Shown here: in pieces, positions 9,199 through 61,699 of the stretch
Numbering within the stretch: the stretch's first letter is position 1
How the letters are laid out: every line of letters begins with the position of its first letter
Assembly (NCBI GenBank): GCA_031262835.1
Contig: JAISGY010000021.1
Location: 707 to 64,706 of the forward strand
DNA: 64,000 nucleotides
Direction of reading: 5' to 3'
From: Ruminococcus sp.
GTDB lineage: Bacteria > Bacillota > Clostridia > Oscillospirales > Ruminococcaceae
The notes under the pieces: generated by a model
What the model saw: the letters and a program-made list of their open reading frames with translations, nothing else
The model's database searches: none
Told to the model about the DNA's origin: nothing
Made by a program: the position numbers and the translations under genes

Positions 9199-9247
9199 AT
9201 AAATCTTAAAACTAAAAACGCAAATTATATATTGATGGTGTAAATTT

Positions 9248-9439
9248 ATGACTGACTTCTTAAAATCCATAGGCGAAAAATACCCGGACTTGCTAAGATA
9301 TTTGAAAGGGTTGAAACGTCCGGCAAAACCCGAATGGCGAGACTATGAAAACGCAAAAGGTTATTTAAGAACGTTTCCTTTATCGTGTGACGAATATGAC
9401 GAGTGCAGACGATACATAGAAAAACGGTTAGGTATATGA
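9248..9439 (+). CDS. hypothetical protein (63 aa)
   Basis: ORF co-oriented with the module. No recognisable motif. Confidence 0.45.
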   Translation: MTDFLKSIGEKYPDLLRYLKGLKRPAKPEWRDYENAKGYLRTFPLSCDEYDECRRYIEKRLGI

Positions 9440-9451
9440 GGGGGTGAAACC

Positions 9452-9775
9452 ATGACCGAGAGCGAGCTTGTTTATGCTGTAATGCGTGAACTGGGTAAAC
9501 ACGGAGCGGTGTATCGGTGTAATTCGGGGAGTGTCAAGCTCCCAAATGGTAAACGGTTTAACGGTATGCCGAAAGGCTTTGCTGATATTATGCTTGTCCG
9601 CTCCGATGGTGTAGCTTGTTTTATCGAGTGCAAGACCGACAAGGGGAAGCTTTCCCCGGAGCAGGAACGGTTTATTGAGCGTATGCAGGGACTTAATGCA
9701 AGGGCAGGGGTTGCCCGTTCTGTTGATGAGGCTATGAATATATGCGAATTACATACAGAATTACACACTGTTTGA
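9452..9775 (+). CDS. VRR-NUC domain nuclease
   Basis: PD-(D/E)xK-like GFADIMLV...CFIECKTDKGKLSPEQERF pattern, typical of VRR-NUC. Confidence 0.75.
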   Translation: MTESELVYAVMRELGKHGAVYRCNSGSVKLPNGKRFNGMPKGFADIMLVRSDGVACFIECKTDKGKLSPEQERFIERMQGLNARAGVARSVDEAMNICELHTELHTV

Positions 9776-9865
9776 TTTTATCCGCTTCAATGTGAAATTA
9801 CCCTCATAAAAAACAAACGCCGTAAATCGAAAAAATACGGCGTTTTAGAATGATATAAAGCATTA

Positions 9866-10612: not shown

Positions 10613-10799
10613 TCTGTCCCTCTTTTCCCATAGCCTCATTTATAGCACGGTTTATGAAGCCGTTGACCGTTTCTCCCTTGCTGTCTGCATATGCCTTAAT
10701 AACGTCCTTTTCACCCTTTTTAACCTTTAATTCAATCCTGTCATAAGCGTTTTTGTTATATTCGCGTTTGTAGTCCGTTGCTTTTGTTCCCATGAACAC
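10602..10799 (-). CDS. small ribbon-helix-helix/Arc-like DNA-binding protein
   Basis: YDRIELKVKKGEKDVIKAYADSKGETVNGFINRAINEA pattern. It overlaps the Fic start. Confidence 0.55.
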   Translation of the reverse strand: MFMGTKATDYKREYNKNAYDRIELKVKKGEKDVIKAYADSKGETVNGFINRAINEAMGKEGQNDE

Positions 10800-10844
10800 A
10801 CCCCCTTATTTGATAATTTAATTATAACACAGTAAGCACAAAAT

Positions 10845-10936
10845 ATCTACCGTTAGATTGTACAAAATATCTAACGTAAGTTTGTGCAACATTTTTCATA
10901 AAAACACTTGACATATCTAACGTTAGATGTTATAAT
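10845..10936. promoter_or_regulatory. divergent control region: three ATCTAACGTTAGAT-type boxes and a TTGACA-17-TATAAT promoter
   Basis: Boxes at 10845-10858 (atctaccgttagat), 10869-10882 (atctaacgtaagtt) and 10915-10928 (perfect palindrome). The last box fills the spacer between -35 (10908-10913) and -10 (10931-10936). Confidence 0.65.
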
Positions 10937-10990
10937 ATAATCACAGGGTAAGACAAACGAACCCGATAATATGAAAGGGCGGAAAAGATT

Positions 10991-11266
10991 ATGAGTAACA
11001 ACGAACTTCACGAACTGATTAAGGAACTCAAAGAGTACAAACTCCTCAAAGAGGAAGCAGAGGCAAGAATCTCCGAGCTTGAGGGCGAACTCAAAGCAGA
11101 GATGACCGCACAGGGAAAAGACAAGATAACCGTTGACGAATACAAAGTGGCACTCTCAATCGTCACACAGCAGAGAATAGACAGCAAGAGACTTGAATCC
11201 GAGCAACCGACAATCTACACAATGTACCTTAAACCGAGCGTATACACCCGGTTGACAGTACGATAA
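10991..11266 (+). CDS. hypothetical coiled-coil protein (91 aa)
   Basis: ORF downstream of the promoter with a heptad-rich N-terminus. No assignable family. Confidence 0.55.
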   Translation: MSNNELHELIKELKEYKLLKEEAEARISELEGELKAEMTAQGKDKITVDEYKVALSIVTQQRIDSKRLESEQPTIYTMYLKPSVYTRLTVR

Positions 11267-11360
11267 AGGAAAACCCCTTGCGTGAGGTGCGAACTCACGC
11301 AGGGGGAATCCCATAAGTTAAAGAAAGGGCTTTCCTACATTGTATCACACTTGACGGAGT

Positions 11361-11645
11361 ATGTCAAGATATTATAAGAAAGATTTGGTGAAAATCATGA
11401 GTGCTTTAGAAATCCTGTTTGATAACTTTATACAGTTACCGCACAACAACCCGGAATCGGAAGAAGCCGAAGACAAGCTTTGCGATTTTGTTTACCGATA
11501 CACAAAAACAGTTGAGGACGGAAATACGTTTTATGAGCTGTTGGGAGACATGACATATGCAGAATGCAAGCGAGCGTTCCGGGCGGGCTTCATTGCCGGA
11601 GCTTATCCGCTTCAAGGCGATCCGACACAAGAGGGGGTGAGATAA
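11361..11645 (+). CDS. hypothetical protein (94 aa)
   Basis: ORF joined to the next ORF by a TAATG overlap. Confidence 0.45.
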   Translation: MSRYYKKDLVKIMSALEILFDNFIQLPHNNPESEEAEDKLCDFVYRYTKTVEDGNTFYELLGDMTYAECKRAFRAGFIAGAYPLQGDPTQEGVR

Positions 11646-11944
11646 TGAAAGAGATAGGCTCTTTTGAAAGTTCGGAAATCTTTAATTCGGCGATAGCGTG
11701 GAAAAAAGCTTTTACCGAAAAGTACGAAGAGGAAATAGCAGCTCCCGAATGGATTTTAATTCAAGCGTGTACAGATGTGGACGGACACATAGAAGACAGC
11801 GTTATCAAGGCAGTCCGGGAAGCGGTACGTGAGATTTTTTCGCAAGGGTATTCAAGGGGTACTATTGACGGCTATGTAAAGTGCTTTAACACTCACAATA
11901 CCGACCGCCGGCACATAGTCCATGTTCGCCGCCGTTCTGCATGA
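11645..11944 (+). CDS. hypothetical protein (99 aa)
   Basis: Internal ATG of the listed ORF, preceded by GAGGGGGTGAG. Starts MKEIGSFESS. Confidence 0.45.
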   Translation: MKEIGSFESSEIFNSAIAWKKAFTEKYEEEIAAPEWILIQACTDVDGHIEDSVIKAVREAVREIFSQGYSRGTIDGYVKCFNTHNTDRRHIVHVRRRSA

Positions 11945-12119
11945 TATGCCGGGGTGAACCGCTTCAAAAAGGGGGGGTGAGATAACTCTCCCCCTTTTCG
12001 GGGGGCTTTTGTCACTTTTGTCACCATATTTTCAGTTTTTTATTTTATTTTTTCAGCCTTTTTTCTTTGTTTCACAATGAAAATGCAATGTTAAAGTCAT
12101 AGTTTACATATATATTAAC

Positions 12120-12148
12120 TTGCATTTTTATCTATGCTATGTTACAAT
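12120..12148 (+). promoter_or_regulatory. promoter upstream of the island sigma-factor gene
   Basis: TTGCAT-17 nt-TACAAT. Confidence 0.45.
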
Positions 12149-12199
12149 ATAAAAAGAGCCTCCTACCGCTTCGAGTAATAATTTCAAGGGGTGTAACGC

Positions 12200-13087
12200 A
12201 TGAGCAATGAAGAACTTGCAGTTTTAATTAAAGCCGGGGAAACCGCCCTTTATTCGCAGCTGTGGACTGGGTGCGAGCGGTATTTCCGTAAACGTTCAAA
12301 TAGCTATTATCGGCATAATGAAAACAGAGCAAAAGGTGCAGGACAGACGGCAGAGGATTTTTATAACGCTTGCTTTTTCGCTATGGTGAATGCTGTGGAG
12401 AGTTTCGACCCCGAAAGCGGTTATACATACCTTACATACACAAATTACCATATTCTCAATGAATTCCGCTCCCTTATCGGTATTAAGCTAAAACGCCGGA
12501 ATCCTCTTGATGACAGCAGCAGTCTTGACGAAACCGCACAAGACGGCGAAACCGCTTATATAGAGCTTATTGAAGACCCGGAAAGCCTTGAACCATTTGA
12601 GGAAATTGCAGAGCGAGAAGACACCCTCATGCTCCGGGCGGAACTTGAAGCGGCTATTGACACGCTCCCGGAACGTGAAGCGGATATTATACGCCGGCAT
12701 TATTTCGAGGGAATCCCGGTTGAACAGATAGCGGAGCGGATAGGTGTTTCACGAAAGCGCGGTTATGATTTAGAGCGGCGAGGGCTTGACAGTTTAAGGA
12801 AAATTGACAAACTGGAGCGTTATCATGATGACATTATTTCGCATGAAGCTTATCACCACACCGGGCTTAATGCATGGAAAACAAGCGGCGTTTCTTCCGT
12901 TGAAAGGGCGGTTGAGATGGCAGAACGGCTTACAACGCGGCGAGCAGAACTTAACGACAATGAGTATATAATTCTGAAAGTTTATTCTGAGGGTATGCCG
13001 GTAACTGCAATTGCACGAATGCTACATATTTCCCCCGGCTATGTTAAAAGACTTTGTGCGAAACATTTATTGCACGGGGCGGCTTGA
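12200..13087 (+). CDS. sigma-70-family RNA polymerase sigma factor with an extra C-terminal HTH
   Basis: Region 2-like N-terminus, region 4 (LPEREADIIRRHYFEGIPVEQIAERIGVSRKRGYDLERRGLDSLRK) and a second HTH (MPVTAIARMLHISPGYVKRL). Confidence 0.8.
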   Translation: MSNEELAVLIKAGETALYSQLWTGCERYFRKRSNSYYRHNENRAKGAGQTAEDFYNACFFAMVNAVESFDPESGYTYLTYTNYHILNEFRSLIGIKLKRRNPLDDSSSLDETAQDGETAYIELIEDPESLEPFEEIAEREDTLMLRAELEAAIDTLPEREADIIRRHYFEGIPVEQIAERIGVSRKRGYDLERRGLDSLRKIDKLERYHDDIISHEAYHHTGLNAWKTSGVSSVERAVEMAERLTTRRAELNDNEYIILKVYSEGMPVTAIARMLHISPGYVKRLCAKHLLHGAA

Positions 13088-13181
13088 ATCACTCAGCCCC
13101 CCCTCCGACAAGCAGCGAAGGTGGTGTTTCGTGTGAGAAAACGCATAATCAAATGATTTTTACTAAAATTCATTTTTAGTA

Positions 13182-13210
13182 TTGCATTTTGAATATGGTT
13201 ATGCTATAAT
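13182..13210 (+). promoter_or_regulatory. outward-facing promoter at the right end of the island
   Basis: TTGCAT-17 nt-TATAAT pointing at attR and the 52-bp repeats. It shares TTGCATTTT and ATGCTAT with the sigma-gene promoter. Confidence 0.4.
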
Positions 13211-13336
13211 GATAAGAGATTTTTGCCCGAAAAAAGAAGATGAAAATAAAACTTGCATACAGAATTGCATACATTTTTAGTAATAAAATCCGTGAACCCT
13301 TATAAAATGGGCGTTCAAAGACCGCCTGTATTATTT

Positions 13337-13500
13337 GAGTGGGAATAAAATATATGAAAAAGAAAGAAATTTTAAGTTAAGTTTTTTTGAGTGGGAATAA
13401 AATATATGAAAAAGAAAGAAATTTTAAGTTAAGTTTTTTTGAGTGGGAATAAAATATTTGAAAAAGAAAGAAATTTTAAGTTAAGTTTTTTCGAGTGGAA
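13337..13500 (+). repeat. 3 full copies plus 1 partial copy of a 52-bp tandem repeat, each starting with a pseudo guaA terminus
   Basis: Units at 13337, 13389 and 13441, with a partial unit at 13493. Copies 1 and 2 are identical and copy 3 has 2 substitutions. Each begins GAGTGGGAATAA (EWE-stop). Confidence 0.95.
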
Positions 13501-13603
13501 ACAACAAAATTAATCATTATTTTCCCCCCGACGGCGGGCTTTTTTTGTTACTTTTGCACGAAAATTCTTTCGTTATGCCCGAAAATAAAACCACTTTATG
13601 TGC

Positions 13604-13657
13604 AAACGAACAAATGTTCGTTTTTCGCTTGACAAATGACCGAAAATATGGTATAAT
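13604..13657 (+). promoter_or_regulatory. operator palindrome plus promoter of the second replication module
   Basis: Perfect palindrome aaacgaaca-aa-tgttcgttt (13604-13623), then TTGACA (13629-13634)-17 nt-TATAAT (13652-13657). Confidence 0.6.
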
Positions 13658-13678
13658 AGGGGCATGGGGGGTGAAGGA

Positions 13679-14290
13679 ATGGTGTTTGAAATTGTCCGCG
13701 AGAGCGTCTCGGCGGAGCGGGCGGCGGCTTATTACGGCATTGAAATCAAGCGGAAACGTTGCCGCTGTCCGTTCCATAACGGCAATGACTTCAACCTGTC
13801 TTTTCACGGCGGCGGCTTTAACTGCTTTGTCTGCGGTACTCATGGCGACAGTATTGAGTTTACAAGACTGCTATTCGGGTACCAGAAGCCCATTGACGCC
13901 GTAAAGCGGCTCAACAGCGACTTTTGTTTATGCCTTGACTTAGGCAAAGTGGGAAAGGGTGAATGGAATCCAACCCTTGCCGACATAAGGCGAAAAACAG
14001 CCGAACGTGAGCTCCCAAAAGCGGTACATAAAATCCTGTGGGAATTTGCCTTGAACCTTGACTGGGTGAAACGTTCACTTGCGCCTAAAACGCCCGAAGA
14101 AAAGCCTTTGGACGTTTGGTTTTATGCCTTGCAAAACTTGTCATTCGCAGAGTATATCCTCGACTGTTTCGAGAATTTGACGCACGAGGGGCAACTTGAT
14201 TTTGCTGTAAAAGAAAAGGAGATGATTTCCCTATATGAACGAATTTCAAAGTTTATTGACGGCTTACGAAGGACTTGCAACGCCGCATAA
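13679..14290 (+). CDS. CHC2 zinc-finger protein, paralogue of 6946-7593
   Basis: CPFHNGNDFNLSFHGGGFNCFVCGTHGD, collinear with the first copy. Confidence 0.75.
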   Translation: MVFEIVRESVSAERAAAYYGIEIKRKRCRCPFHNGNDFNLSFHGGGFNCFVCGTHGDSIEFTRLLFGYQKPIDAVKRLNSDFCLCLDLGKVGKGEWNPTLADIRRKTAERELPKAVHKILWEFALNLDWVKRSLAPKTPEEKPLDVWFYALQNLSFAEYILDCFENLTHEGQLDFAVKEKEMISLYERISKFIDGLRRTCNAA

Positions 14291-15764
14291 CGAAAATCAA
14301 TCGTTATTTGCGGAATTTATACCGCTCGAAAACTCCGAGCCGCTCCCGGCGTTTCCGCTTGGTGCTTTCAATCGGATTTGTCCCGGCGTGGGCGAGTTCA
14401 TTTTTGCGGCAACAGAGAGCATACAAACGTCCTTCGACCTTGTTGGTTCTTGCACACTCGGAGTGCTTCAAATTGCCTGTAACGGGCGTTATCCCGTCAG
14501 CTTGCCGAACGGGCACAAGGAGCAGCCCTGCTTCTATATCGCGCCGATTGCGCCGCCCTCTGAACGCAAGAGCGGAGTTATTGCCGCTGTAACACGTCCG
14601 CTTACCGATTTTGAAAACGCTTACAACGAAGAACACGACGCCGACGCGGCTCTTAAAAGGAGCGAGCTTAAGGTACTGCAAGGGCGCATTGCAGAGACTG
14701 AACACGCTATGATAAAGGCGAAATCGAGCGACGCTTATGACGCTGCTGCTTTTGAACTTGAAAAGCTTAACAATGAGCTTGCGGCATTTGAAGAGGCCTC
14801 ACCGCTGCGGCTGTTTGGTGCAGACGTTACGCCCGAGAAGCTTGCCTCAATGCTTAAGGCGCAAGGCGAGGTGTTCGCGCTTGTGTCCGCAGAGGGTGGC
14901 GGCATTTTCGAGAATATCGGGCGGTATTCCGACAAGGGCGGGCTTGAAATTTACCTCAACGGCTACAGCGGCGACAGGGTTACCGTTGACCGAAAGATGT
15001 CCGAGAGTGTTGTAATTGAACACCCCACGCTTAACCTAATCCTGCCCTGCCAGCCGTCGGTTATAACAGACCTGTTTTCGGACAAGCAGAAATCCGGGCG
15101 AGGGCTCCTGTCAAGGATACTTTTTGTCGACTGTTACACACGTTTAGGCAAGCGGGAAGCAATGAGCAAGCCCATTGACGGTAACATTGCCGCGAGTTAC
15201 AATAGTCTTATCAACAATATCCTTTCCGACGGGGGTAAGGGAGAATTGCAATTTGACGACGGCGGCAAGGCGGTTTACGAGTCGTTCTTTAACGAAATCG
15301 AGCCGGGTTTAGCACCCGACGACGGCGAGCTCCATTTTATGGGGGATTGGGCAGGTAAACTTCCCGGGCAGATGGTGCGCCTTGCAGGGCTTATCCACTG
15401 CATAGCCGCCTTTGAAAAGCACCGAAACCCTCTTGACAGCTTCATTAACGCAGACGAAGCCGCTGCCGCTGTCACACTCGCAAGGTATTTCCTCGCACAC
15501 GCCAAGGCGGTATATCGCGGGCAGAGAGAGCCGAAGGAATTAGCCAATGCGCGATACCTGTGGAAGCGAATAAATTCAATAAATTCAACCTTTTTTAGTA
15601 AAAGCGAATTGACACGCAAGGTTCAATCAAAGACTGATTTTGATTATTCAGAATCCCTCAAGCTGCTTGTTGATAACGGATATATCAGAATCGAGGTGAA
15701 TTTACCAGAGCACAGCAAAAAACCTGTTGAGACTATATACGTAAATCCAGAAGCGGTTAAGTGA
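14235..15764 (+). CDS. DUF3987/YfjI-like replication protein, paralogue of 7538-9127
   Basis: Collinear similarity along the whole length (for example FIPLENSEPLP.FPL, APIAPPSERKSGVI, LRLFGADVTPEKLA). Confidence 0.6.
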   Translation: MNEFQSLLTAYEGLATPHNENQSLFAEFIPLENSEPLPAFPLGAFNRICPGVGEFIFAATESIQTSFDLVGSCTLGVLQIACNGRYPVSLPNGHKEQPCFYIAPIAPPSERKSGVIAAVTRPLTDFENAYNEEHDADAALKRSELKVLQGRIAETEHAMIKAKSSDAYDAAAFELEKLNNELAAFEEASPLRLFGADVTPEKLASMLKAQGEVFALVSAEGGGIFENIGRYSDKGGLEIYLNGYSGDRVTVDRKMSESVVIEHPTLNLILPCQPSVITDLFSDKQKSGRGLLSRILFVDCYTRLGKREAMSKPIDGNIAASYNSLINNILSDGGKGELQFDDGGKAVYESFFNEIEPGLAPDDGELHFMGDWAGKLPGQMVRLAGLIHCIAAFEKHRNPLDSFINADEAAAAVTLARYFLAHAKAVYRGQREPKELANARYLWKRINSINSTFFSKSELTRKVQSKTDFDYSESLKLLVDNGYIRIEVNLPEHSKKPVETIYVNPEAVK

Positions 15765-15862
15765 TGAATAGATAAAAAGGGAAGCGGAAGGTGATATACC
15801 GACCGCTTTTTTTTGTAAAATCAACTTTAGAAATTACATTGAATTTATTGAATTTATTCTGT

Positions 15863-50946: not shown

Positions 50947-51249
50947 TTACACCATATTTATCATTTCAAGGTACTGTACGGTTTCGCGAAATCCCGGGCG
51001 CACATCTGCTATCTTCCCGTTTCTGAACGCAATCGCAGTCGGTACACCGGTTATGTTATACCGCTTTGCAAGTTCGGAGTTCGTGTCAAAATCAATTATC
51101 TTTACTTTCTCACGGCATTTTTCATCAAGCTGCTTTAGTTCATCTAAAAGTATTAAGCAAAGCGGACACCAATTCGCGTAAAAAACAGCAACCATACTGT
51201 CCTTGTATTCATCAAAATTCTCAAGCGTAAGTGCAGTAATCGCGGTCAC
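50947..51249 (-). CDS. thioredoxin-like protein (WCPLC active site)
   Basis: FYANWCPLC motif and thioredoxin-fold length. It has a 4-nt overlap with the upstream gene. Confidence 0.8.
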   Translation of the reverse strand: MTAITALTLENFDEYKDSMVAVFYANWCPLCLILLDELKQLDEKCREKVKIIDFDTNSELAKRYNITGVPTAIAFRNGKIADVRPGFRETVQYLEMINMV

Positions 51250-52325
51250 GAGTCCTCCCCTACCCCAATGCTTCTAAACCAATTTCTGTTATAGAGTATC
51301 GAATCGGTTACCTTATATTCCGCCGCAATTTCATTATATTTATAAGCCGTTTTTTCATCACCGAGCTTTGAATAACACACACAAATCTGAATCGCCGGAA
51401 GATAACCGTAGCAATCAGGAAGTATAAACGCGCCGGAATCAAAATCAGGTTCCTGCGACAGCGCGTTTTTATACCAATATATCGCTTGCTTATACGCCTT
51501 AATATTCATGAATTGCCGCCCGAGCTCACAGCTTGTTTCCGCACGCGGCGTGTCATAGATAAGCGTTTCAAAGAGCGACATAAACGCATTGCTCTGCTCC
51601 CCCATACGCTCAAAGCACTCCGCCCTGATTCGACAGGCATCGATATTGTTTTCAATCCAACCTTTTTTTGAATTAATGAATTTTGTTAACACTTCGATGG
51701 CATCGTGATTTCGATTGTGGTAAAAAAGTTCTCTGCCGTAATAAAACATATCCCTCGGCGATAATTCTTCGCCCAATCCGATATGTTTTTCGTATAGATT
51801 GATGTTGCGGTCGGAATCCCCTGTCCCTGTTTTGTGATGTTCTACAGGCAGCGAAACGCTTATAATATTCCCGAACATTGTAATTGTTTCGTGTATAAAA
51901 CCCTGCCAGAGCGCATATTCGCAATTTTTAATAATACGCTCCCGCTGATATGTAAAGGTTGGTTTGCCGTTCGCAAATCCGGTGTGGTACGGCATCCTAA
52001 CTACGTCTATATCCCTTTTAAGTTCTTTCTTGAGTTTTATAAGCCCAAAACGAGTATCTTCAGGTAAAATATCATCGGCATCAAGCCACATTATATACTC
52101 GCTCGAAGCTTTTGAAAACGCAAAATTACGCGCTGCCGCAAAATCGTCAACCCAAACGAAGTCGTATATTTTGTCGGTAAAAGCAGCGGCGATTTCCTTA
52201 GTTTTATCGGTGCTGCCCGTGTCGGCGATGATTATTTCGTCAAAGACGCCCTTAACACTGTCAAGGCAATTTTTCAAGTTTTTTTCTTCGTTCTTTACAA
52301 TCATACAAAGGCTCAAAGTTATCAT
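51246..52325 (-). CDS. family-2 glycosyltransferase with C-terminal TPR-like repeats
   Basis: LSLCMIVKNEE, IIADTGSTDKT and LDADD motifs, with helical repeats in the C-terminal half. Confidence 0.8.
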   Translation of the reverse strand: MITLSLCMIVKNEEKNLKNCLDSVKGVFDEIIIADTGSTDKTKEIAAAFTDKIYDFVWVDDFAAARNFAFSKASSEYIMWLDADDILPEDTRFGLIKLKKELKRDIDVVRMPYHTGFANGKPTFTYQRERIIKNCEYALWQGFIHETITMFGNIISVSLPVEHHKTGTGDSDRNINLYEKHIGLGEELSPRDMFYYGRELFYHNRNHDAIEVLTKFINSKKGWIENNIDACRIRAECFERMGEQSNAFMSLFETLIYDTPRAETSCELGRQFMNIKAYKQAIYWYKNALSQEPDFDSGAFILPDCYGYLPAIQICVCYSKLGDEKTAYKYNEIAAEYKVTDSILYNRNWFRSIGVGEDS

Positions 52326-52394: not shown

Positions 52395-53276
52395 TTATTG
52401 TACAGCAGCACAGATTGCATATGCAGCAATTGAATGTGAAGTTCCGAGGATAGATGATGTTGTATTTTTAGCGGTAACCTGCCAGCTGTTCCCTGTAATA
52501 TTAGGTGTACTGCGGGTGAAAATTATCTCCCCGCTGTTGTCGGGTTCAAGGAAACCGCCGGAAATCATCTTTGTCCCGTTTGGGCAGGTTGCGGTAAGGC
52601 TGTTAACTACTCCGCCTCCGGAAACAGTTGCTGTGTTTACAATTGTTGAAAGCGTTCCGTATGAACCGGGTGCTCCGGTTGCTCCTGTTGCGCCGGTTGC
52701 GCCGGTTGCGCCTGTTGCGCCTGCTGCTCCGGTTGCGCCTGCTGCTCCTGTTGCTCCTGTTGCGCCCTTTACGCCTTGAATTCCTTGTACCCCTGTTGCG
52801 CCGGTTGCTCCGGTTGCTCCGGGTGTACCCTGTACGCCCTGTGTACCCTGTGCGCCTGTCGCGCCTGTTACGCCTTGAATTCCTTGTGCGCCTGTCGCTC
52901 CGGTTGCTCCGGTTGCTCCGGTTGCTCCGGTTGCTCCTGTTGCGCCTTGAATTCCTTGTGCTCCTGTCGCGCCGGTTGCTCCGGTTGCTCCGGGTGTACC
53001 CTGTGCGCCTTGTGTACCCTGTGCGCCTGTCGCGCCTGTCGCGCCTGTTACTCCTGTTGCGCCTGTTGCGCCCGTCGCTCCTGTTGCGCCGGGGTTACCT
53101 TGCAACCCCTGAATACCTTGAGGACCTTCCGCGCCCTGTATCCCCTCAACGCCTTGAGGACCTTGTGCTCCTGTTGCTCCTGTCGCTCCTGTCACTCCGG
53201 TTTCGCCTTGTATTCCCTGAACGCCTTGTTCACCCTGTAACCCGGTTGCCCCTGTCGCTCCTGTTGCCGCACTTAT
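52395..53276 (-). pseudogene. 3' half of a split collagen-like (BclA-like) gene: G-X-Y repeats plus a C-terminal globular domain; no start codon of its own
   Basis: The reading frame opens immediately after a TAA (53279-53277) as [15 protein letters not shown].... The listed start at 53195 is an internal GTG. It ends with a roughly 95-aa domain ([15 protein letters not shown]...[10 protein letters not shown]). Confidence 0.7.
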
Positions 53277-53289
53277 TTATCCGCAACTT

Positions 53290-54894
53290 TTAATCCTTTA
53301 ACCCGTCATTAAAGCAAAATACAATTGATATTTCGCGGCATTCATGTACATAGACGTTTTCAACAAGCTCTGCAAGAACCCCTCGGGTTATTTTCTTGAA
53401 ATTCTTATGTCTCCCCCATTCGTCAAAAAAACTGTTATCCTCTGCCTTTATAATCTCCTTTTGTTCCTTAAAAAGATTACATAAATCTTCGTTTATTTGA
53501 TTAACCGAAGTTTCAAACTTATTTTTCAACCGCCGATAATCAGTCTCTGTAATTTCGCCGGTTTTCCAGTCCATATATAAACTGTCAAGGGCAGTATTGT
53601 ACTTCGCCGATTCACGGTTTTTATCGGCAATCAATTTTTCAATGTGCTTAGTATTTGAAGCGGTTAGAGTTTCGTCAACAATGTCCGCAAGTGAATCTAA
53701 AAGGTTCACATGCAACTGTATAACCGCCAAAACACAATTATATAAAACATCTTCGCGTATTGAATGTTTCGTGCATTTTTTATCGGATTTATCGGTGTAT
53801 GTTCGGCAAGCGTAGTAAACATAACCCTTCGCACTCCTTCGCTCCAAAGCCTTATTACAATCGAAACAACGCATAAATCCCGAAAACAAATGCAGTGTCC
53901 GTGAGTCGTCAGCCGTTCTTGTGTCACGTAACAAAAGCCGCTCAAGCCTGTTATACTCGTCCTGCGTGAAGGTTGGCTCGTGCGTATTTTCTTTAATAAT
54001 CCACTCATCTTCCGGCACGGCAACTTTATCGTGAACCTTATAACTCACAACCCTTTGTTTACCCTGCACCATATGCCCGAGATTAACCTTGTCAAGAAGA
54101 ACTCGTCTAACCGTCTGCCCCGTCCAAAGACCGTCATTAATATCGGAATTGGGATTAAAGTAATTCCATCCCTTGCTCGCTTTATATGAAGTGGGATTCG
54201 GTACACCCAAATCGTTAAGCTTTTTCGCCGCTCCGCGAAGACTCATTCCGTCACCGACAATCCAATAGTAAATCTCTTTTTTTATCGGAATAATATTTTC
54301 ATCTAAGATAAGGTGATTTTTATTATTCGGGTCTTTAAGATAACCATACGGCGGGAACGCTCCGATGAATTCGCCGTTCCTGCGTTTTGTTGCGAAAGTA
54401 CGGCGAATATCGCTCGATGTTTTCGCGGCGTAGCGGTCGTTCATAAGCCCTGTTATAGGCACTTCAAGCCCCAATAAAACCTCCGGTTCGGTAAATGTAT
54501 CAATCTTCGGGTCACCCGTTGAAATAAATCGAACCTGCTTTTGCGGGAAATAATATTCGAGATAGTAACCTTGGTCGGAGTAGTTACGAAACGCTCTTGA
54601 AAGCGTCTTGCAGACAATGCAGTTTACACGCCCGTCTTCAATGTCTTTTATCATTCTCATAAAGTCTTTACGGCTGTCGTCGGTGCCGGAAAGCCCATCA
54701 TCTATGTAGAAATCCGCTAACTCGAATTTATCATTAAAATATTCCTCAAGATACTCGGTTAGAATTTTCTTTTGATTTGTAACACTTTCGCTCTCTGTAT
54801 TGCCGTCTTCTCTGGAAAGGCGGATATAGACGGCTACTCTCCATGTTTTTTCAGCGGTTTCTTGCTTGTCGGCATTTCGTTTACGGCGCGCCAT
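53290..54894 (-). CDS. large serine recombinase
   Basis: VAVYIRLSREDG catalytic Ser region, DDGLSGTD, a recombinase domain, a zinc ribbon (CFDCNKAL...YYACRTY...KCTKH) and a coiled-coil tail. Confidence 0.92.
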   Translation of the reverse strand: MARRKRNADKQETAEKTWRVAVYIRLSREDGNTESESVTNQKKILTEYLEEYFNDKFELADFYIDDGLSGTDDSRKDFMRMIKDIEDGRVNCIVCKTLSRAFRNYSDQGYYLEYYFPQKQVRFISTGDPKIDTFTEPEVLLGLEVPITGLMNDRYAAKTSSDIRRTFATKRRNGEFIGAFPPYGYLKDPNNKNHLILDENIIPIKKEIYYWIVGDGMSLRGAAKKLNDLGVPNPTSYKASKGWNYFNPNSDINDGLWTGQTVRRVLLDKVNLGHMVQGKQRVVSYKVHDKVAVPEDEWIIKENTHEPTFTQDEYNRLERLLLRDTRTADDSRTLHLFSGFMRCFDCNKALERRSAKGYVYYACRTYTDKSDKKCTKHSIREDVLYNCVLAVIQLHVNLLDSLADIVDETLTASNTKHIEKLIADKNRESAKYNTALDSLYMDWKTGEITETDYRRLKNKFETSVNQINEDLCNLFKEQKEIIKAEDNSFFDEWGRHKNFKKITRGVLAELVENVYVHECREISIVFCFNDGLKD

Positions 54895-54904
54895 CTACTC
54901 CCCC

Positions 54905-57900
54905 CTAAAAGCATGGATTGTAGGTATTTGTAAATACAGGCACTGTCCCCTCGTCATAGCTGACCCGTGCTGCAAGCGTTCCCTGTCCGTTATCAGAAAC
55001 GGTAACGGTAACGCCGGCGGTTTTATCGTCACACTGCCAACCGTTGCCGGAGATATTCAGTTCTTTTATGAAGAAACGGTAAACGCCTGCTTTATTGAAA
55101 CTCTGCGCAGGAAATGACACAAAACCGTCTTCATCATTTCTTGCGGAGGAAATCTGTGTACCGCTGCTGTCGAACAGTCCGAAGTTGAACCAATTTGGAT
55201 AAAGTTCTGTTCCGCAGACACACTTGTTTGCGTATATTTTTGCCGTTACAGGCGCAAGTTCATAGGTATTTGTAAAAACAGGTGCTCCGTTAGGGTAAGA
55301 AATTTCTGCCCTTGTTGTTCCGTCCCCATTGTCAATAACACTTATATGAAGCAGATATTTATTCTTATCCGTTGTCCAGTTGTCACCGTCGGGAGTTATT
55401 TCATGTATGGTAAAATTGTAGTCGCCTATGGGCAGATTAAATTCCGAGAAGGTAATATTCCCATCTCCGTCATTTTTTGCGTACAAAATTATTGTACCGT
55501 CGTCGTTAGTAAGTTGAAACTCAAACTGTCCTGCTTCAAAGTTTTTGCCGACAGCGGTCTTTTTTGCGGTAATATTAATCGGTGAATCCGAGGCAGCATA
55601 GTAGTTATCAAAGATAGGTACAGTACCGTCGGGATAGTCCACGCTTGCGGCAAGATTTTGGTGCTCGTCTCGGGTAACAGTCACAACAACCGGAAATGTT
55701 CTTAAGTCGCTTCTCCAGCCTGCTCCGACGGAAGGATTCTCCTCTTCGATCGTGTAACTGTACGTTCCGGGTTCGGTATAGTCAAGCACGCCGAAATCGA
55801 TCTGTCCGTCTTTATTCTGCGCGGTTTCTATAACGTTTCCCTTATCGTCCTTGAGGATAAAACTAAACTGTTTTTCGGTATTGTTCCATCCGTGCACAAC
55901 CTTCCCGGCAGTGATTTTTTCGGAAACAGGTTTATTATTATAGATGTTATTAAAAACAGGTATACCGCCCGGATAAGAAACTTTCGCGCTTAAAGTACCG
56001 TCGCCGTTGTCCGTTATGTTAACGTTAACGGGATAAGCTGACTTATCGGTTATCCATCCGTTTCCGTCAACGCTTACTTCGCGCATCGTATAGACGGTGT
56101 TTCCGACCTTCGACGAGAAAAACAACGGGAAATGAATTTTTCCGTCAGCGTGATTAAATCCCATTGCGATTATGTTGTTATTCTCGTCGTAAAGTGCGAA
56201 GCTGAAACGGCTGTCGGAGAGTTCCCCTCCGCTTGCTGTTTTTGTCGGGATTTCTCCGCTCGGATTGTTGTTGATAATATTGCCGACATTTGCGGGAATT
56301 GCTGTGTAAATGGGATTGAAAATATCGCCGTTCGGGTAGGTTGCAATTGATGAGCTTGTACCGTCGCCGTTGTCGGTTACATTAACATGAACAGGGAGTT
56401 CGGGTACATCAAAAGTCCAGCCGTTTCCGTTAGGAGGCGCAACAATTCTATAATCGTAATCGCCGTCCGGCAGATTCAATGTCGGGAAAACTATATTGCC
56501 GTTATCGTCATTATGTGCAGTCCCGACAATATTTCCCTTATCGTCAACAACGTTAAACTCGAATTCGCCGTCCGCCGGAGTTTTACCATGCCCGATAACT
56601 ACTCCCTTTATATCCGCATCGGCGTTGTCAGAGCTGTAAACGTTATCAAATACAGGCGTACCGTTCGGGTAGGTTACCTCCGCCGTCCTGTGTCCTTTAC
56701 CGTCGTCTGTAATATTAACCTTCACGGGGTAGCTTGACTTATCGACACTCCAACCGCCGCCGTCAGACGTTAACTCCTTCACTTCATAGTCCGTTTCACC
56801 GAGTTTCGACGAATAAAACAGCGGGAATCTTATACTGCCGTCGGCGTTATTAAACCCGACAGCAACAAGGTTTCCGTTACTGTCATACAGTCCGAATCGA
56901 AACTGACTGTTTGTCATAGCCTTGCCGGTTGCAGTTTTTTTAGGAGTTCCTGAAATTACACTGCCTATATTCACCGGAAGTGTTGAATATGTATTGACAA
57001 ACTGCGGTGCTGTGTTGTTGCTGTCGGGATAGTCAACGGCTGCAATTAAACCGCCCTTTCCGTCATCAGTCATATGAACAATTACACGATATGAATTTAC
57101 AGGTATTGTCCAACCGTCCGGGAGCGGCATTTCTTCATTGACTGTATATTCATAATCACCTGGTTCTATGTATTCCAACGTCCCGAAATCAAGCGTCCCG
57201 GCTGAACTTGTTATTTCTTTAACTATATTGCCGTCCTTGTCCTTAAGACTAAACCTGAAGGTTGGTGCAGTTTGCCCGGTTGTGAAGCCTTGCAGCGATT
57301 TGAATGCCAAAATATGCTCTGAACCCTCTGTCGTGTATGTGTTTATAAACGCAGGCTCGGGTGTCGGTTGTACTATCTCTGCGACAAGCTGCCCTTTACC
57401 ATTGTCGGTAACAATAACCTTGTAGGGGTAACTCGACTTGTCGGTAGTATAACCGCCGCCGTCCGGTGTAGTTTCCTTAACCGTATAGTCATATTCGCCC
57501 GGTTTATCAAAGTAACCGACCGGGAATTTTATATCGCCGTTTACGTCATTTGTACCTGTTGTAACGAGGTTGCCTTGAGCATCAAAAACGCCGAATGTAA
57601 ACTGCCCCGCTTCAAGAGGTTTTCCGCCCGAAACCGCTTTTTTCGTCTTCGGCGTACCTTCCTCCCCTGTGGTTGCCTGTGAGGGTTTATAGGTATTAAC
57701 TAAAGTCGGAACACGGTCAATTGCCGCTGTAAGCTGTCCTGAACCGTCGTCAGTTACCGTTACATTAACATTATGGAGAGTTTTATCAAGTGTCCAGCCG
57801 TCACCGTCTGCGCCTTCCTCGAAGATAGTCAGTTCTGTGTTATCACGGGTTTCAAACTCCCCGAAGTCAATTGTACCGTCCGTCCCCTGTATACGCGTCA

Positions 57901-59722
57901 AGATGCCGTCTGAATTTCGTAAAACAAAGGTAAACTGTTTATCCGACTTTTCGGGCAGCGTCCAGCCGTTTATGACTTTATGCGCGGTAACATGATATTG
58001 TGCCGGAGCGGGTTCATAGTAAGCATTGAAATCAGGGTCGGCGGGATAGGTTACTTCGGGGGTGGAAGTGCCGTTGCCGTTATCCTTAACGCCGACATGA
58101 ACGGGAATAGACGGCTTGTCGAATGTCCAGCCGTTGCTGTCTTCCGGGGGTATTACTTCAAAACTGTAATCGCCGGCAGGCAGATTTATATCCGGGAAAA
58201 CAATATTTCCGTCCTTGTCATTCTGTGCCTTTCCGACAATATTTCCGTTCTTATCAACTATATTAAATTCAAACTCACCGCCCGTGAGAGGTTTTCCGTG
58301 CGCGATAACCTTATCCTTTATCCCGACAGGCGACTCCGTATAGGTATAGGTATTGACGAAATTGGGGTTGAGTTCGGGATTATAGGTAACCTTTGCGGCA
58401 AGATTGCCGCTTCCGTCCTTCGTAACCGAAATATGAACGGAGCAATAATGCCTGTCATACTGCCAACCGGGTTTCGGCGGGTTATCAACGACCTCCGCCA
58501 TCTCGTAGTCATGTTCGCCGATTTCATTATAACTTATGTCGGGGAAAACAATTGTGCCGTCGGGGTTATTTGTAACGGTTGAAATAATCTTCCCGTTCTC
58601 GATTAAATTAAACCTAAAAGTTCCTCCCGTTATTACGGAAGAATTGGATTTATTCTGTTTTGAAGCTTGAATTTTAACGGTTGCGGGAGCTTTTTCATTG
58701 ACAAAAACGGGTGCTTTTCCGCCTTCCCAAGATATAGAGCCCTTAAGAGGCAGGTTGTCATTTTTGCCGTCGTCTGTTATCGTAATTGCAGCGCGGTATT
58801 CGGTTTTATCTGCGGCATATTTTCCTGTCGGGTCGGGAAGTTCACGAACGGTATAATTATAAGTACCCGGACTGACAAATGTTATCGGTGTAAACGTAAC
58901 AGTCCCCGCCGCAGTATTTGTGCCGGTTGCAACCTGATTACCGTTATCGTCAAACAAGCCGAATTGAAACTGATTGTCGGTCTGAGCTGAGCCGTCCGCA
59001 ATTTTTTTTGTTACGTTATTATCGGGGTCGAGCCCTTGAGCTCCGTCCCACCCGTCCCCGAGGCTGTAAATATTCGGTGCTTTCCATTTATAGCCGATGT
59101 CGTCGTTGTTATAGGCATATTTATTCGGAGAGGTAAACTGTGTTGTCTTAATATGCGCATTATGTACCGGGATATCTGTCGGCTTTAAGATTTCGGCATT
59201 CCCTGTTGTTGCCTTATTGTTTGAAAAAGTAACAGTTGACGAAACGTCAAGATTCACAAGCTCTTTCTGCGGGACATATATTGCGCCGCCGTTTTGGGCT
59301 TCGTTGTCGGCAATTGTCGCTTGATCTATAGTTATAACAGAATTTCCTAAGTTTATTGCTCCGCCGTTAGTATTCGGTGTTCGGTTCCCGATAAGATCTA
59401 CGCCGTTTTTGAGTATCAGTCTTGTATTGTTTCCGGCAATTAAGCTGCCTCCCGCGTCGGGGTATTTACTCTTATTGACGTCTATGATTAAATTAGAGAT
59501 GGTTAACGCCGCACCGTCGGACAGTTTTATTAAGTCGCCTGTTGCCCCTCTGGTAAGACGGTGTAGGGAATCCGCGCCATTAATTATAACGGTTTTCCCG
59601 GCGGGAATTGTTATGTCTTTTGTTACAGAAAAATCTCCGGTAACATTTATATTAATGTTGCTGTCAGATGACGCAAGAGCAGTGTTTAGCGTTTCCATGC
59701 TGTTTACATTATAATCTGCCAT
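54905..59722 (-). CDS. 1606-aa protein: N-terminal parallel beta-helix (GGAI-type repeats) plus 12 tandem Spy0128/FctA-like isopeptide domains; no signal peptide, no LPXTG
   Basis: Twelve repeats of F.F.L.D..G.....(N/T).D.G.I.FP...(Y/F)...G.Y.Y.(I/V).E...(G)W..D.....V.V.VTD(D/N)G.G.....V.YP....F.N.Y. The start at MADYNV (59722) is coupled to the upstream stop. Confidence 0.85.
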   Translation of the reverse strand: MADYNVNSMETLNTALASSDSNININVTGDFSVTKDITIPAGKTVIINGADSLHRLTRGATGDLIKLSDGAALTISNLIIDVNKSKYPDAGGSLIAGNNTRLILKNGVDLIGNRTPNTNGGAINLGNSVITIDQATIADNEAQNGGAIYVPQKELVNLDVSSTVTFSNNKATTGNAEILKPTDIPVHNAHIKTTQFTSPNKYAYNNDDIGYKWKAPNIYSLGDGWDGAQGLDPDNNVTKKIADGSAQTDNQFQFGLFDDNGNQVATGTNTAAGTVTFTPITFVSPGTYNYTVRELPDPTGKYAADKTEYRAAITITDDGKNDNLPLKGSISWEGGKAPVFVNEKAPATVKIQASKQNKSNSSVITGGTFRFNLIENGKIISTVTNNPDGTIVFPDISYNEIGEHDYEMAEVVDNPPKPGWQYDRHYCSVHISVTKDGSGNLAAKVTYNPELNPNFVNTYTYTESPVGIKDKVIAHGKPLTGGEFEFNIVDKNGNIVGKAQNDKDGNIVFPDINLPAGDYSFEVIPPEDSNGWTFDKPSIPVHVGVKDNGNGTSTPEVTYPADPDFNAYYEPAPAQYHVTAHKVINGWTLPEKSDKQFTFVLRNSDGILTRIQGTDGTIDFGEFETRDNTELTIFEEGADGDGWTLDKTLHNVNVTVTDDGSGQLTAAIDRVPTLVNTYKPSQATTGEEGTPKTKKAVSGGKPLEAGQFTFGVFDAQGNLVTTGTNDVNGDIKFPVGYFDKPGEYDYTVKETTPDGGGYTTDKSSYPYKVIVTDNGKGQLVAEIVQPTPEPAFINTYTTEGSEHILAFKSLQGFTTGQTAPTFRFSLKDKDGNIVKEITSSAGTLDFGTLEYIEPGDYEYTVNEEMPLPDGWTIPVNSYRVIVHMTDDGKGGLIAAVDYPDSNNTAPQFVNTYSTLPVNIGSVISGTPKKTATGKAMTNSQFRFGLYDSNGNLVAVGFNNADGSIRFPLFYSSKLGETDYEVKELTSDGGGWSVDKSSYPVKVNITDDGKGHRTAEVTYPNGTPVFDNVYSSDNADADIKGVVIGHGKTPADGEFEFNVVDDKGNIVGTAHNDDNGNIVFPTLNLPDGDYDYRIVAPPNGNGWTFDVPELPVHVNVTDNGDGTSSSIATYPNGDIFNPIYTAIPANVGNIINNNPSGEIPTKTASGGELSDSRFSFALYDENNNIIAMGFNHADGKIHFPLFFSSKVGNTVYTMREVSVDGNGWITDKSAYPVNVNITDNGDGTLSAKVSYPGGIPVFNNIYNNKPVSEKITAGKVVHGWNNTEKQFSFILKDDKGNVIETAQNKDGQIDFGVLDYTEPGTYSYTIEEENPSVGAGWRSDLRTFPVVVTVTRDEHQNLAASVDYPDGTVPIFDNYYAASDSPINITAKKTAVGKNFEAGQFEFQLTNDDGTIILYAKNDGDGNITFSEFNLPIGDYNFTIHEITPDGDNWTTDKNKYLLHISVIDNGDGTTRAEISYPNGAPVFTNTYELAPVTAKIYANKCVCGTELYPNWFNFGLFDSSGTQISSARNDEDGFVSFPAQSFNKAGVYRFFIKELNISGNGWQCDDKTAGVTVTVSDNGQGTLAARVSYDEGTVPVFTNTYNPCF

Positions 59723-59723
59723 A

Positions 59724-59981
59724 TTAAAATTCTCCTTTTCTCCTCTGCCCCATGAGATAAGACTTAATACACTCCCTAAGCGGTTTCCCGCCTTCTGTAA
59801 ACTCCACATTTACCGCAATATCCCCGCAGCGGAAGTGGTAGGGATTTTTAACCTGAGAAAGATACTGCTCTGCTCGTTTTTCGACAGATGCGTTCATATC
59901 AATTTCAATGTCATTGATATCTACACGCTCTGATAGCGTGGGGCGTTCGTCTTTTAGTTTATTAAGTTCTTCTACAGTCAA
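59724..59981 (-). CDS. small protein (85 aa) of a family I recall seeing next to serine recombinases in Clostridia elements (DUF6870-like?)
   Basis: TTG start preceded by GGGGAG. Contains a KNPYHFRCGDIAVNVEF motif. The family call is from memory only. Confidence 0.5.
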   Translation of the reverse strand: MTVEELNKLKDERPTLSERVDINDIEIDMNASVEKRAEQYLSQVKNPYHFRCGDIAVNVEFTEGGKPLRECIKSYLMGQRRKGEF

Positions 59982-60063
59982 AGTGTTACACTCCCCATTA
60001 TCACAAGATACTAAATCTTATGAGCGGGCAGAGAAAAACTTGCATGAGCTTTACTATTTCTGT

Positions 60064-60102
60064 AAATAAAAAACGCCTTGAAAGAGAAGTTTCTTTCACA
60101 AG
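60064..60102 (-). terminator. intrinsic terminator immediately after the premature stop of the collagen 5' half
   Basis: Minus strand: cttgtgaaaga-aacttc-tctttcaag followed by gcgttttttattt, 16 nt downstream of the TAA. Confidence 0.55.
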
Positions 60103-60117
60103 CGGTTGTGGGTTTAT

Positions 60118-61641
60118 TTACGCTCCTGTTGCTCCGGCTGCCCCCGTAACACCCTGTATGCCCTGAACACCTTGTATACCTTGCGGTCCTGTTGCGCCCG
60201 GTTCGCCCTGTAAACCTTGCTCGCCCTGTATACCCTGTTCGCCGGTCGTACCTTTTATACCCTGCGGACCTGTAGCACCTGTTGCGCCTTGTATCCCCTG
60301 TATGCCTTGTTCACCGTCGTTGCCCTGCGGTCCTGTCGGTCCTGTCGCTCCGATTGCACCGGTTGCGCCGGTCACGCCCTGCAATCCCTGAACGCCCTGT
60401 GCACCTGTCTGTCCTGTTGCCCCTGTGGTACCGCGTTCGCCTTGTACACCCTGTTCCCCCTGTATACCCTGTGCGCCTGTCGCACCTGTCGCGCCGGCTG
60501 CACCTGCCGGTCCTGCCTCTCCCGTCGGACCTACAGCACCGTCCGCGCCTGTCGGTCCGGTTGCGCCGCGTTCACCCTGTATCCCCTGTTCGCCATGAAT
60601 ACCCTGCGGACCGGTTGCGCCGGTTGCACCCGGTTCGCCTTGTTCACCCTGAACACCTTGAATACCCTGCGGACCGGCAATCTGTCCGACATTCTGCCAG
60701 CTCTGCGAATCCGTGTCCCATATGTAAAGATCGGGATTAACATAATAAGCGTCGCCCTGCGTTCCTGTGGGGTGTGCGGCGATTAAATCGTCATAGTTAT
60801 CAAAAGAGCCGGAAAGTGCGCCGACTTCCCCCGCAATACCCTGTATACCCTGCGGTCCGGTCGCGCCGGTTGCACCGGGTTCACCCTGCACACCCTGTAT
60901 ACCCTGCACCCCTTGAGAGCCTGTCGCGCCGGTCGCTCCCATCGGACCTTCGGGACCTGTCGCACCCGTCACGCCGGGTTCACCCTGAATTCCTTGTGTC
61001 CCGGTATTCCCAATGACACCTTGAATCCCCTGTAAACCTTGAATACCCTGCGGACCTGTCGCTCCTGTCGGACCCATTTCCCCGACCATACCCATGATGC
61101 CTTGTATGCCCTGTATGCCTTGCGCGCCTGTTGCTCCCGGAACGCCGTCCGCGCCTTTTTGCCCAACTAAACCCTGTTCGCCGCGAACACCCTGTATACC
61201 TTGAACACCCTGAATACCGTCGGCGCCCGTCGGTCCTGTCGGTCCGGGAATACCCTGTGCGCCGGTCTCTCCCCTCATGCCGGCTTCGCCGCGTTCACCC
61301 TGTTCGCCCTGTATACCGGGTTCACCCTGTAAACCCTGAATACCCTGTGCACCGGTCGCGCCTGCCGGTCCGGGAGAACCGTCCGCGCCTGTTGCGCCGC
61401 GTTCGCCCTGTATCCCCTGAACCCCTTGAAGTCCGCGTGCGCCGGTTTCTCCAGTTGCGCCCCTCGGACCCTGCTTGCCCGCCGACCCGGCGATCCCCTG
61501 CACGCCTTGTATACCTTGAATGCCCTGTATGCCGGTTGCTCCTGTCGGTCCTCTTTCACCCTGCGGTCCTGTATTTCCTGTCGGGCAAGCGTATGGACAT
61601 CCTCCGTTTATAACGGGACAATCTTCATAGTATCTATACAT
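60118..61641 (-). CDS. 5' half of the collagen-like (BclA-like) gene: Cys-rich N-terminus plus G-X-Y repeats, ending abruptly within the repeat
   Basis: [31 protein letters not shown]..., a roughly 45-aa non-collagen insert ([39 protein letters not shown]), and the ending ...[11 protein letters not shown]-stop. Confidence 0.8.
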
Positions 61642-61672
61642 AATTCATCACCATAAAACAAAATCTTGTTAA

Positions 61673-61699
61673 TATCCTATGCAAAATTTCGCTCTGTGT
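61673..61699 (-). promoter_or_regulatory. possible sigma-K-type promoter for the collagen-like gene
   Basis: Minus strand AC-16 nt-CATAGGATA fits AC-N16/17-CATAnnnTA, about 30 nt upstream of the ATG. The motif is short, so this is weak. Confidence 0.3.

Follow-up and report, generated by a model that had tools for sequence, protein, structure and literature searches.

Background

Gene-intervening elements carried by a large serine recombinase (LSR) are already known. Here we describe such an element in a 64,000-nucleotide stretch from Ruminococcus sp. (GenBank assembly GCA_031262835.1, contig JAISGY010000021.1, positions 707 to 64,706), which is referred to below as the window. On its minus strand a collagen-like gene is divided into two halves by an inserted element of 6,865 bp, and the last gene of this element encodes an LSR.

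One described element of this kind is gin, which interrupts gerE in B. cereus ATCC 10987 (Abe et al. 2017, PMC5595907). Like the window element, gin is a non-phage element inside an open reading frame (ORF), its attachment (att) sites are those of an LSR, in which imperfect inverted repeats flank a short core common to both sites, and its excision rebuilds the ORF. The interrupted gene, gerE, is a late mother-cell gene, and the direction of recombination is set by a small partner protein, GirX (PMC5595907). Unlike the window element, gin is 28.6 kb long, has three recombinases and is inserted in a single gene at a 9-bp core that is unique; experiments have demonstrated that it is excised specifically during sporulation (PMC5595907). 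The window element is 6.9 kb long with one LSR, and its target is a degenerate motif present about 54 times in one gene and common to many collagen genes.

In SPbeta/spsM and skin/sigK (PMC4191935, PMC5499854, PMC5025042) the LSR is likewise located at the element end, and the targets are spore-envelope or mother-cell genes. The recombination directionality factors (RDFs) of this type, SprB and CD1234, have been identified and are under sigma-E or sigma-K control (PMC4191935, PMC5499854, PMC5025042). SPbeta and skin lead from an active prophage to a degenerate remnant, and two prophage relatives of the window element (L158 and L161) parallel SPbeta. Unlike the window element, SPbeta and skin occupy single-copy sites, and their recombinases SprA and SpoIVCA are not TnpX-like.

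Tn4451/Tn4453 (TnpX) and Tn5397 (TndX) share with the window element a TnpX-like LSR and a small size of about 6-7 kb. As in the Tn4451 type, a circular attP form is found among the relatives (L118), and relatives carry Rep, FtsK, HTH and sigma modules. Unlike these transposons, the window element has no Mob protein or oriT (its three ORFs are DUF6870, an FctA-repeat protein and the LSR), it lies in collagen repeats rather than in loosely defined sites, and it has a conserved DUF6870 partner. The crossover dinucleotide of the TnpX type is GA, whereas that of the window element is AC.

The interrupted gene resembles C. difficile bclA3 (PMC7157674), whose product also has a short N-terminus, Thr-rich Gly-X-Y repeats and a C-terminal globular domain, with a glycosyltransferase gene adjacent. 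No signal peptide is evident by eye, and the promoter matches a mother-cell sigma factor, as for BclA3. Unlike in BclA and BclA3, the C-terminal domain is of an unrelated, Cys-bracketed kind, an extra module is found in the middle of the protein, and the spore location is here inferred from promoter and context.

Results and discussion

The interrupted gene and the inserted element

The whole split gene spans 61641->52395 on the minus strand. Its 5' part (60118..61641) encodes 507 aa (Pfam Collagen, E=2.4e-74) and consists of a Cys-rich N-terminus with 3 Cys within residues 1-19, a Gly-X-Y block, a non-collagen module of about 55 aa and a second Gly-X-Y block. It ends in mid-repeat, and without a C-terminal domain, at a TAA (60120-60118) that is made of element sequence. 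The 3' part (52395..53276) reopens the collagen frame at 53276, immediately 3' of a TAA. There is no start codon or ribosome binding site (RBS) in its first 27 Gly-X-Y codons and no N-terminal domain; about 200 aa of G-A-T-G-rich Gly-X-Y are followed by a domain of 92 aa. Despite the missing start codon, this fragment of 293 codons contains zero stops or frameshifts. Removal in silico of the 6,865 bp between two copies of a 12-mer gives an in-frame protein of 793 aa in which the Gly-X-Y phase is kept.

This layout had been proposed in an earlier note on the window, which our analysis bears out for the two halves and their possible rejoining. The note gave about 480 aa of G-X-Y for the 5' half; the repeat there is not continuous, being broken by the non-collagen module. 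The module itself (60660-60830, minus strand; residues ~271-325 of the 5' ORF) recurs in short collagen-like proteins (P0122-P0125), which carry another C-terminal domain.

The insert differs from its surroundings in composition, with a GC content of ~0.43-0.47 against 0.55-0.63 in both collagen parts. The motif GGN-GCN-ACN-GGN occurs 54 times in the collagen gene and once in the remaining 61.6 kb, both strands counted.

The element covers 53263..60127 (minus strand; 6,865 bp with one copy of the AC crossover dinucleotide counted) and is a tight operon of three co-oriented genes, as the note had it. The first encodes a DUF6870 protein (59724..59981; 85 aa; PF21757, E=6e-22). The second (54905..59722) is a cargo gene for a protein of about 1,605 aa with about 12 FctA (Spy0128-like isopeptide) repeats. 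Its likely start is the ATG at 59722, one base past the DUF6870 stop and with the RBS AAAGGAGA ahead of it; an alternative in-frame ATG at 59809 would overlap DUF6870. The third gene is that of the LSR (53290..54894; 534 aa; stop codon 53292-53290), and the end of its ORF is 14 nt from the point where collagen coding resumes. No transfer or replication genes are found among these three ORFs, and with its single cargo gene the window element is the most reduced form seen among its relatives.

The LSR is TnpX-like and of full length, with the three domains Resolvase (PF00239, E=1.7e-16), Recombinase (PF07508, 5.9e-16) and Zn_ribbon_recom (PF13408, 1.3e-12), and the catalytic YIRLS motif (YIRLSRED) is visible. 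Among solved structures the closest by sequence is the TnpX catalytic domain (PDB 2mhc, E=1.3e-21), followed by a C. difficile conjugative-transposon recombinase (3g13). The ratio dN/dS is 0.11 for the LSR against an 80%-identical relative, 0.07 for DUF6870 against its closest relative and 0.17 for the FctA cargo against its homologue in locus L081. Judged from these ratios, all three genes are kept by purifying selection.

The giant cargo protein lacks both a signal peptide and an LPXTG motif, which is unusual for FctA/Spy0128 domains. Its homologue in L081 (20091-21653, 71% identical) lies outside the recombinase element, beside ABC transporter genes.

Attachment sites of the window element

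The left site, attL (60105..60152), reads on the minus strand GGAGCA-AC-AGGAGCGTAA-ATAAACCCACAAC, that is, a collagen half-site, the dinucleotide AC (60129-60128), a spacer (60127-60118) and an arm (60117-60105). The right site, attR (53240..53287), reads on the same strand GTTGCGGATAAAT-AAGTGCGGCA-AC-AGGAGCGACAGGG, with the arm at 53287-53275, the spacer at 53274-53265, the AC at 53264-53263 and a collagen half-site thereafter. The attR arm starts 2 nt past the LSR stop codon.

At both sites a 13-nt arm is thus placed exactly 10 nt from an identical central AC. The dinucleotide is non-palindromic and forms the first two bases of the Thr codon in x-Thr-Gly. The arms cover positions 12-24 from the site centre, and in attP sites of serine integrases the outer zinc-ribbon contacts are expected at about positions 12-24 from the centre. 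LSR sites should be about 40-50 bp long, with imperfect inverted arms and a central dinucleotide that is the same in attL and attR; this is found here, and the L118 attP, L152 and L155 (see below) agree. Since attL and attR share the same AC, precise excision would rebuild the 793-aa ORF and give an attP-bearing circle; the predicted junctions are GGGGCAGCCGGAGCAACAGGAGCGACAGGGGCAACC for attB and GTTGCGGATAAATAAGTGCGGCAACAGGAGCGTAAATAAACCCACAAC for attP.

The note had instead rested the junctions on two motifs said to occur in the same order at both ends. On the plus strand the 12-mer precedes the 7-mer at 53 kb and follows it at 60 kb, so the order is not the same. The 7-mer TTATTTA was rejected as a second repeat, being abundant (8 and 9 copies on the two strands) and placed differently relative to the crossover at the two ends. 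The 12-mer CGCTCCTGTTGC does contain the crossover AC at both junctions (60129-60128 and 53264-53263), but its identity alone is no better than chance: a third copy is found at 53076, and the collagen gene contains 8 copies of its 11-nt core. Because the 12-mer is uninformative alone, the junction claim needed independent evidence, which was supplied by the relatives of the recombinase.

Junctions among related recombinases

A metagenome scan with the recombinase gave 72 related loci, and more were obtained from exact-protein look-ups. The junction set comprised 29 junctions initially and 34 after later additions, 30 of them distinct.

Just past the recombinase stop, 28 of the 29 initial junctions show the 13-nt arm, 10 nt and then AC or GT. 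The arm consensus is GTTG(Y)G..ATA.AT, where '.' means any nucleotide, and GT replaces AC when the collagen gene is on the opposite strand. Over the 36 nt beyond the crossover, at least three of four Gly codons stand in the exact 9-nt register in 19 of the 30 distinct junctions; the chance of this is ~1e-3 per junction. In the collagen junctions the crossover is always the AC of the Thr codon in x-Thr-Gly. Furthermore, identical element ends are found beside different collagen flanks in three sets of loci (L109-L113, L096-L101 and L092-L094), which argues that the elements move and land in collagen DNA.

For two complete related elements, too, rejoining keeps both the frame and the Gly-X-Y phase. 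These are L152 (9.8 kb), whose arms match at 12/13 positions, and L122 (about 6.1 kb). Additionally, L118 carries after its recombinase gene (11698-11790) an intact attP, GTTGTGCGAAAAT-ACATGGTTCA-GT-TGAACCATCA-ATATTTGCACAAC, with arms matching at 11/13. By its sequence, L118 is a related element in unintegrated or excised form, and the arrangement of its attP (arm, 10 nt, GT, 10 nt, arm) confirms the att spacing that had been inferred from the junctions.

In L155 (4476-6955) one collagen gene holds two elements with a 400-bp collagen fragment between them; the order is an LSR with its attR, the collagen fragment, an attL and then a second element, which is headed by DUF6870 and carries FeoAB. 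L157 has a homologous collagen gene with the same mid-module, which is also broken in its second collagen block, perhaps at the same site. Taken together, the junctions place most members of this LSR group in collagen-triplet DNA, in either orientation.

Four loci (L105, L107, L116 and L120) have instead a common non-collagen flank, TGGCCCGAAGT, past the crossover, after which they diverge. This flank may be a second target, or it may be the extreme 5' end of a gene family.

Strength of the insertion reading

We put the probability at about 0.85 that the element is a site-specific insertion, with intact and matched att sites, in the collagen repeats. Integration would have been conservative, by site-specific recombination into repeats that code for Gly-Ala-Thr-Gly.

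Several points weigh against this reading and what it implies for excision. The two arms in the window are imperfect inverted copies with only 9/13 positions matching. There is no recognisable 13-nt arm 10 nt from an AC at the left ends of L156 (8130-8400) and L157 (6960-7190). No empty site or uninterrupted allele of this gene was found in any collection searched. The uninterrupted orthologues that the note had asked for did not turn up: exact-protein look-ups with the GT2 glycosyltransferase, the LSR and the thioredoxin of the locus gave no other contig, a scan of genome collections with the GT2 gave homologues of at most 52% identity, and a chimeric query of N-terminus, mid-domain and C-terminal domain, together with a full HMMER scan with the C-terminal domain, gave fragments only. 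A role of DUF6870 as a candidate accessory or directionality factor is a guess, and its AlphaFold2 (AF2) model is poor (pLDDT 60) and unusable for comparison with known RDFs. Finally, the host is a metagenome-assembled genome (MAG), in which repeat-rich genes are prone to misassembly; this concern is offset by the recurrence of the junction geometry in many independent assemblies.

The last point bears on the explanation that the locus is a coincidence or an assembly artefact, with unrelated collagen-like ORFs flanking an island and a 12-mer that is just a low-complexity repeat. Collagen repeats are indeed hard to assemble, and the 12-mer and the 7-mer are each unremarkable. We nevertheless regard this explanation as largely refuted and very improbable, given that the 5' ORF has no C-terminal domain and the 3' ORF neither a start nor an RBS nor an N-terminal domain, that the element supplies the stop codon of the 5' half, and that the junctions lie exactly at the recombinase arms in a geometry repeated in ~30 independent contigs from other samples.

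A second explanation accepts the insertion and holds that the element integrated once and cannot leave, so that the collagen gene is a pseudogene giving at most a 507-aa stub. It would fit the window arms being more diverged than those of L152 and L118, the lack of transfer or replication genes, and the missing empty site. Against it, the LSR is of full length with its three domains, YIRLS motif and a dN/dS of 0.11, and at both att sites the AC is the same and lies exactly 10 nt from the arm. The left arm, though divergent, agrees at 11/13 positions with that of L081, which looks functional, and the 3' fragment has kept its 293 codons without stop or frameshift and encodes a C-terminal domain that folds confidently. 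A dead insertion thus seems improbable to us, and we think it likely, from the state of the LSR and its sites, that the integrated element is competent for excision.

Role of the interrupted gene

Upstream, an ABC solute-binding-protein gene is separated from the collagen gene by a 64-nt gap. A sigma-K-type promoter match, AC-N16-CATAGGATA (61673..61699, minus strand), has its -10 end 31 nt 5' of the collagen ATG. Over the whole 64 kb, both strands counted, the strict motif is matched 4 times against an expectation of 2.4; a match within the 64-nt spacer has p ~1e-3. The same motif is found ahead of 11 of 77 other collagen-like ORFs in loci with GT2 homologues.

Directly 3' of the collagen gene lie, on the same strand, a gene for a GT2 glycosyltransferase with TPR (51246..52325) and a thioredoxin-family gene (50947..51249; PF00085, E=9.5e-14) that overlaps the GT2 stop. 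The note had compared this pairing with bclA3/sgtA, and the comparison gains from the homologues: GT2-TPR proteins are found in Oscillospiraceae, Lachnospiraceae, Clostridium and Paenibacillus, and most of their loci are flanked by collagen-like genes, often with Cys-rich N-termini. In C. difficile, SgtA, the product of the gene beside bclA3, O-GlcNAcylates Thr residues of the BclA3 collagen repeats (PMC7157674), and the crossover codon in the window is exactly such a Thr.

The collagen N-terminus shows no hydrophobic leader or signal peptide when read by eye. Thr-rich central Gly-X-Y repeats with an adjacent glycosyltransferase, the trait of the BclA family, are both present. The sigma-K-type match and the adjacent GT2-TPR gene support a late mother-cell, spore-surface role, and from these features the collagen gene probably encodes a glycosylated protein of the spore surface that is made in the mother cell. 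The rest of the 64-kb window shows no sporulation gene.

The name 'BclA-like' used in the note is apt for architecture and context and fails for the C-terminal domain (52398-52676, minus strand). This domain of 92 aa is six-stranded beta in its AF2 model (pLDDT 90.7). A BclA-type (TNF/C1q-like) domain was rejected, as there is no Pfam match, the model has no PDB match at E<0.4, and the domain belongs to another family. The C-terminal domains of the relatives likewise gave no BclA matches by sequence.

The family in question is unannotated, Cys-bracketed and about 75 aa long (ATCPxG...GGGF...GNxWxV...AYAIC), with 611 homologues. Most of these are secreted, measure about 285 aa and carry the domain three times in tandem, and one C-terminal domain on a presumably trimeric collagen would equal the same three-fold set.

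Possible excision and its timing

In the integrated state, transcripts from the collagen promoter would end at a terminator of the element, and the product would be the 507-aa protein without C-terminal domain. The intact LSR, possibly aided by DUF6870, would excise the element and restore the 793-aa ORF.

The terminator-like hairpin with its U-run (60068..60104, minus strand) lies just inside the left end of the element. The 81-nt stretch 60125->60045 that contains it has dG -20.2 kcal/mol and z = -3.9, matched by 0 of 200 shuffles, and L156 and L157 have the conserved motif GGCG(T/A)TTTTTT at their left ends as well. With such a terminator just past attL, read-through from the collagen promoter into DUF6870-FctA-LSR is disfavoured as the developmental trigger.

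Would excision be restricted to sporulation? On this explanation the element is kept in the forespore chromosome and excised only in the sporulating mother cell, like skin/sigK, SPbeta/spsM and gin/gerE. It draws on the exact sigma-K consensus 31 nt 5' of the ATG, on the GT2-TPR neighbour like that of sgtA/bclA3 and on the lack, by eye, of a hydrophobic leader. Both gene halves remain fully open, the LSR and DUF6870 are under purifying selection in an element without transfer genes, and the homologous collagen gene in L157 is likewise broken in its second collagen block. The LSR group also runs from prophage to a stripped three-gene element, as SPbeta does to skin and gin (PMC5595907).

The regulatory side is less favourable to it. 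No sporulation-type promoter was identified for DUF6870-FctA-LSR, neither DUF6870 nor the LSR being preceded by a clear sigma-E or sigma-K promoter, and a scan of the region with sigma-70 and terminator consensus patterns was uninformative. The terminator speaks against read-through, a conserved upstream block is ambiguous, and the window shows no sporulation genes. The relatives vary in insertion position, orientation, cargo and copy number, as opportunistic mobile elements would, and TnpX-type LSRs can excise without any developmental signal.

By analogy with the known elements, sporulation-specific excision in the mother cell is therefore possible but rather doubtful in our judgement. Ordinary low-frequency or element-regulated excision comes close to an even chance, and the remainder after these two falls to no excision at all. 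It is as tentative that the group forms a new class of sporulation-coupled intervening elements, in which prophages, and the stripped elements descended from them, would lodge in the exosporium-type collagen genes that gut Clostridia carry and be removed in the mother cell.

The conserved block, CATAwGATwTArTATcTTGTG, lies ahead of the DUF6870 RBS in four elements (window 59982-60067, minus strand; L155, L156 and L157) and holds an AAGAT/ATCTT inverted repeat. It could be a mother-cell -10 core (CATAnnnT), a sigma-A -10 (TAGTAT) or an operator.

The recombinase group and its vehicles

In a neighbour-joining tree the collagen-targeting recombinases form several adjacent lineages with 42-80% identity to the window LSR, and one nested clade has switched to a different target. 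Two integrases with 65% identity (P0010 and P0018, in L158 and L161) end siphovirus prophages (HK97 gp10-like, Dit, Sipho_Gp37) and are followed by an attR, GPT/GPD collagen repeats, a C-terminal domain, and GT2 and GT2-TPR genes. More distant members are found with HTH, DUF3102, FtsK-like and Rep_1 genes (L152, 42%) and with kinase-LRR, HTH and sigma-70 region 4 genes (L118, 44%). The nearest ones, L081 (80%) and L082 (89%), carry NACHT-WD40, TIR and RelA/SpoT genes. On this gene content the recombinase group spans prophages, Rep_1/FtsK mobilisable elements and small cargo islands.

Of 74 related loci, 52 have a DUF6870 match at E<1e-3, and in every case for which coordinates were compared this gene immediately precedes that of the LSR. 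The window element and the L155-L157 type have it at the opposite end from the LSR, with the cargo in between.

A recombinase group specialised on a codon-periodic, multi-copy collagen target appears to be new. In the full-text literature, for which coverage was incomplete, we found nothing relevant on collagen or bclA genes as targets of integration or of intervening elements, and nothing relevant on DUF6870.

A satellite in a prophage tail-fibre gene (HE-PICI-like) was also considered for the window and rejected, as no phage genes flank its collagen gene. In L158 (11720-12900) the prophage interrupts a collagen gene whose product has a C-terminal domain similar in sequence to PDB 9h38 (E=9e-8). 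This entry was deposited as 'flagellar hook-length control protein FliK' (148 aa, 21 chains), which suggests a filament-forming fold.

Other features of the window

No RNA genes were found in the region of the split gene. A second mobile region (45-15800) lies beside guaA (2550-4055). At the window edge it has an N-terminally cut LSR (45-1457) that is 24% identical to the collagen-site LSR, followed by a tyrosine recombinase (4359-5822), DUF3987 (7538-9127) and Fic (9866-10639) genes, a sigma-70 region 4/HTH gene (12200-13087) and a gene for a DnaG-type zinc-ribbon protein (13664-14290).

Conclusion

The target of this recombinase is a codon-periodic repeat (x-Thr-Gly) and not a unique locus, which offers tens of landing sites per gene, and different collagen genes in different hosts are all usable as landing sites. 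This is relevant to DNA recognition by serine integrases and to the engineering of such enzymes for targets that are repetitive. DUF6870 is a conserved partner of a large TnpX-like family and as such a candidate directionality or accessory factor.

If excision does take place in the mother cell, the collagen fibre of the spore coat would be made only after it. With dozens of near-equivalent Thr-Gly sites per gene, integration and excision at different repeats could furthermore resize or diversify the stalk. Spore-surface collagen genes would then be added to the interrupted sporulation genes sigK, spsM, spoVFB, spoVR, gerE and yabG, and the range of intervening elements would be extended to uncultured Clostridia of the gut and the termite gut. 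In MAGs of Clostridia, collagen-like genes that look truncated may be split genes rather than pseudogenes.

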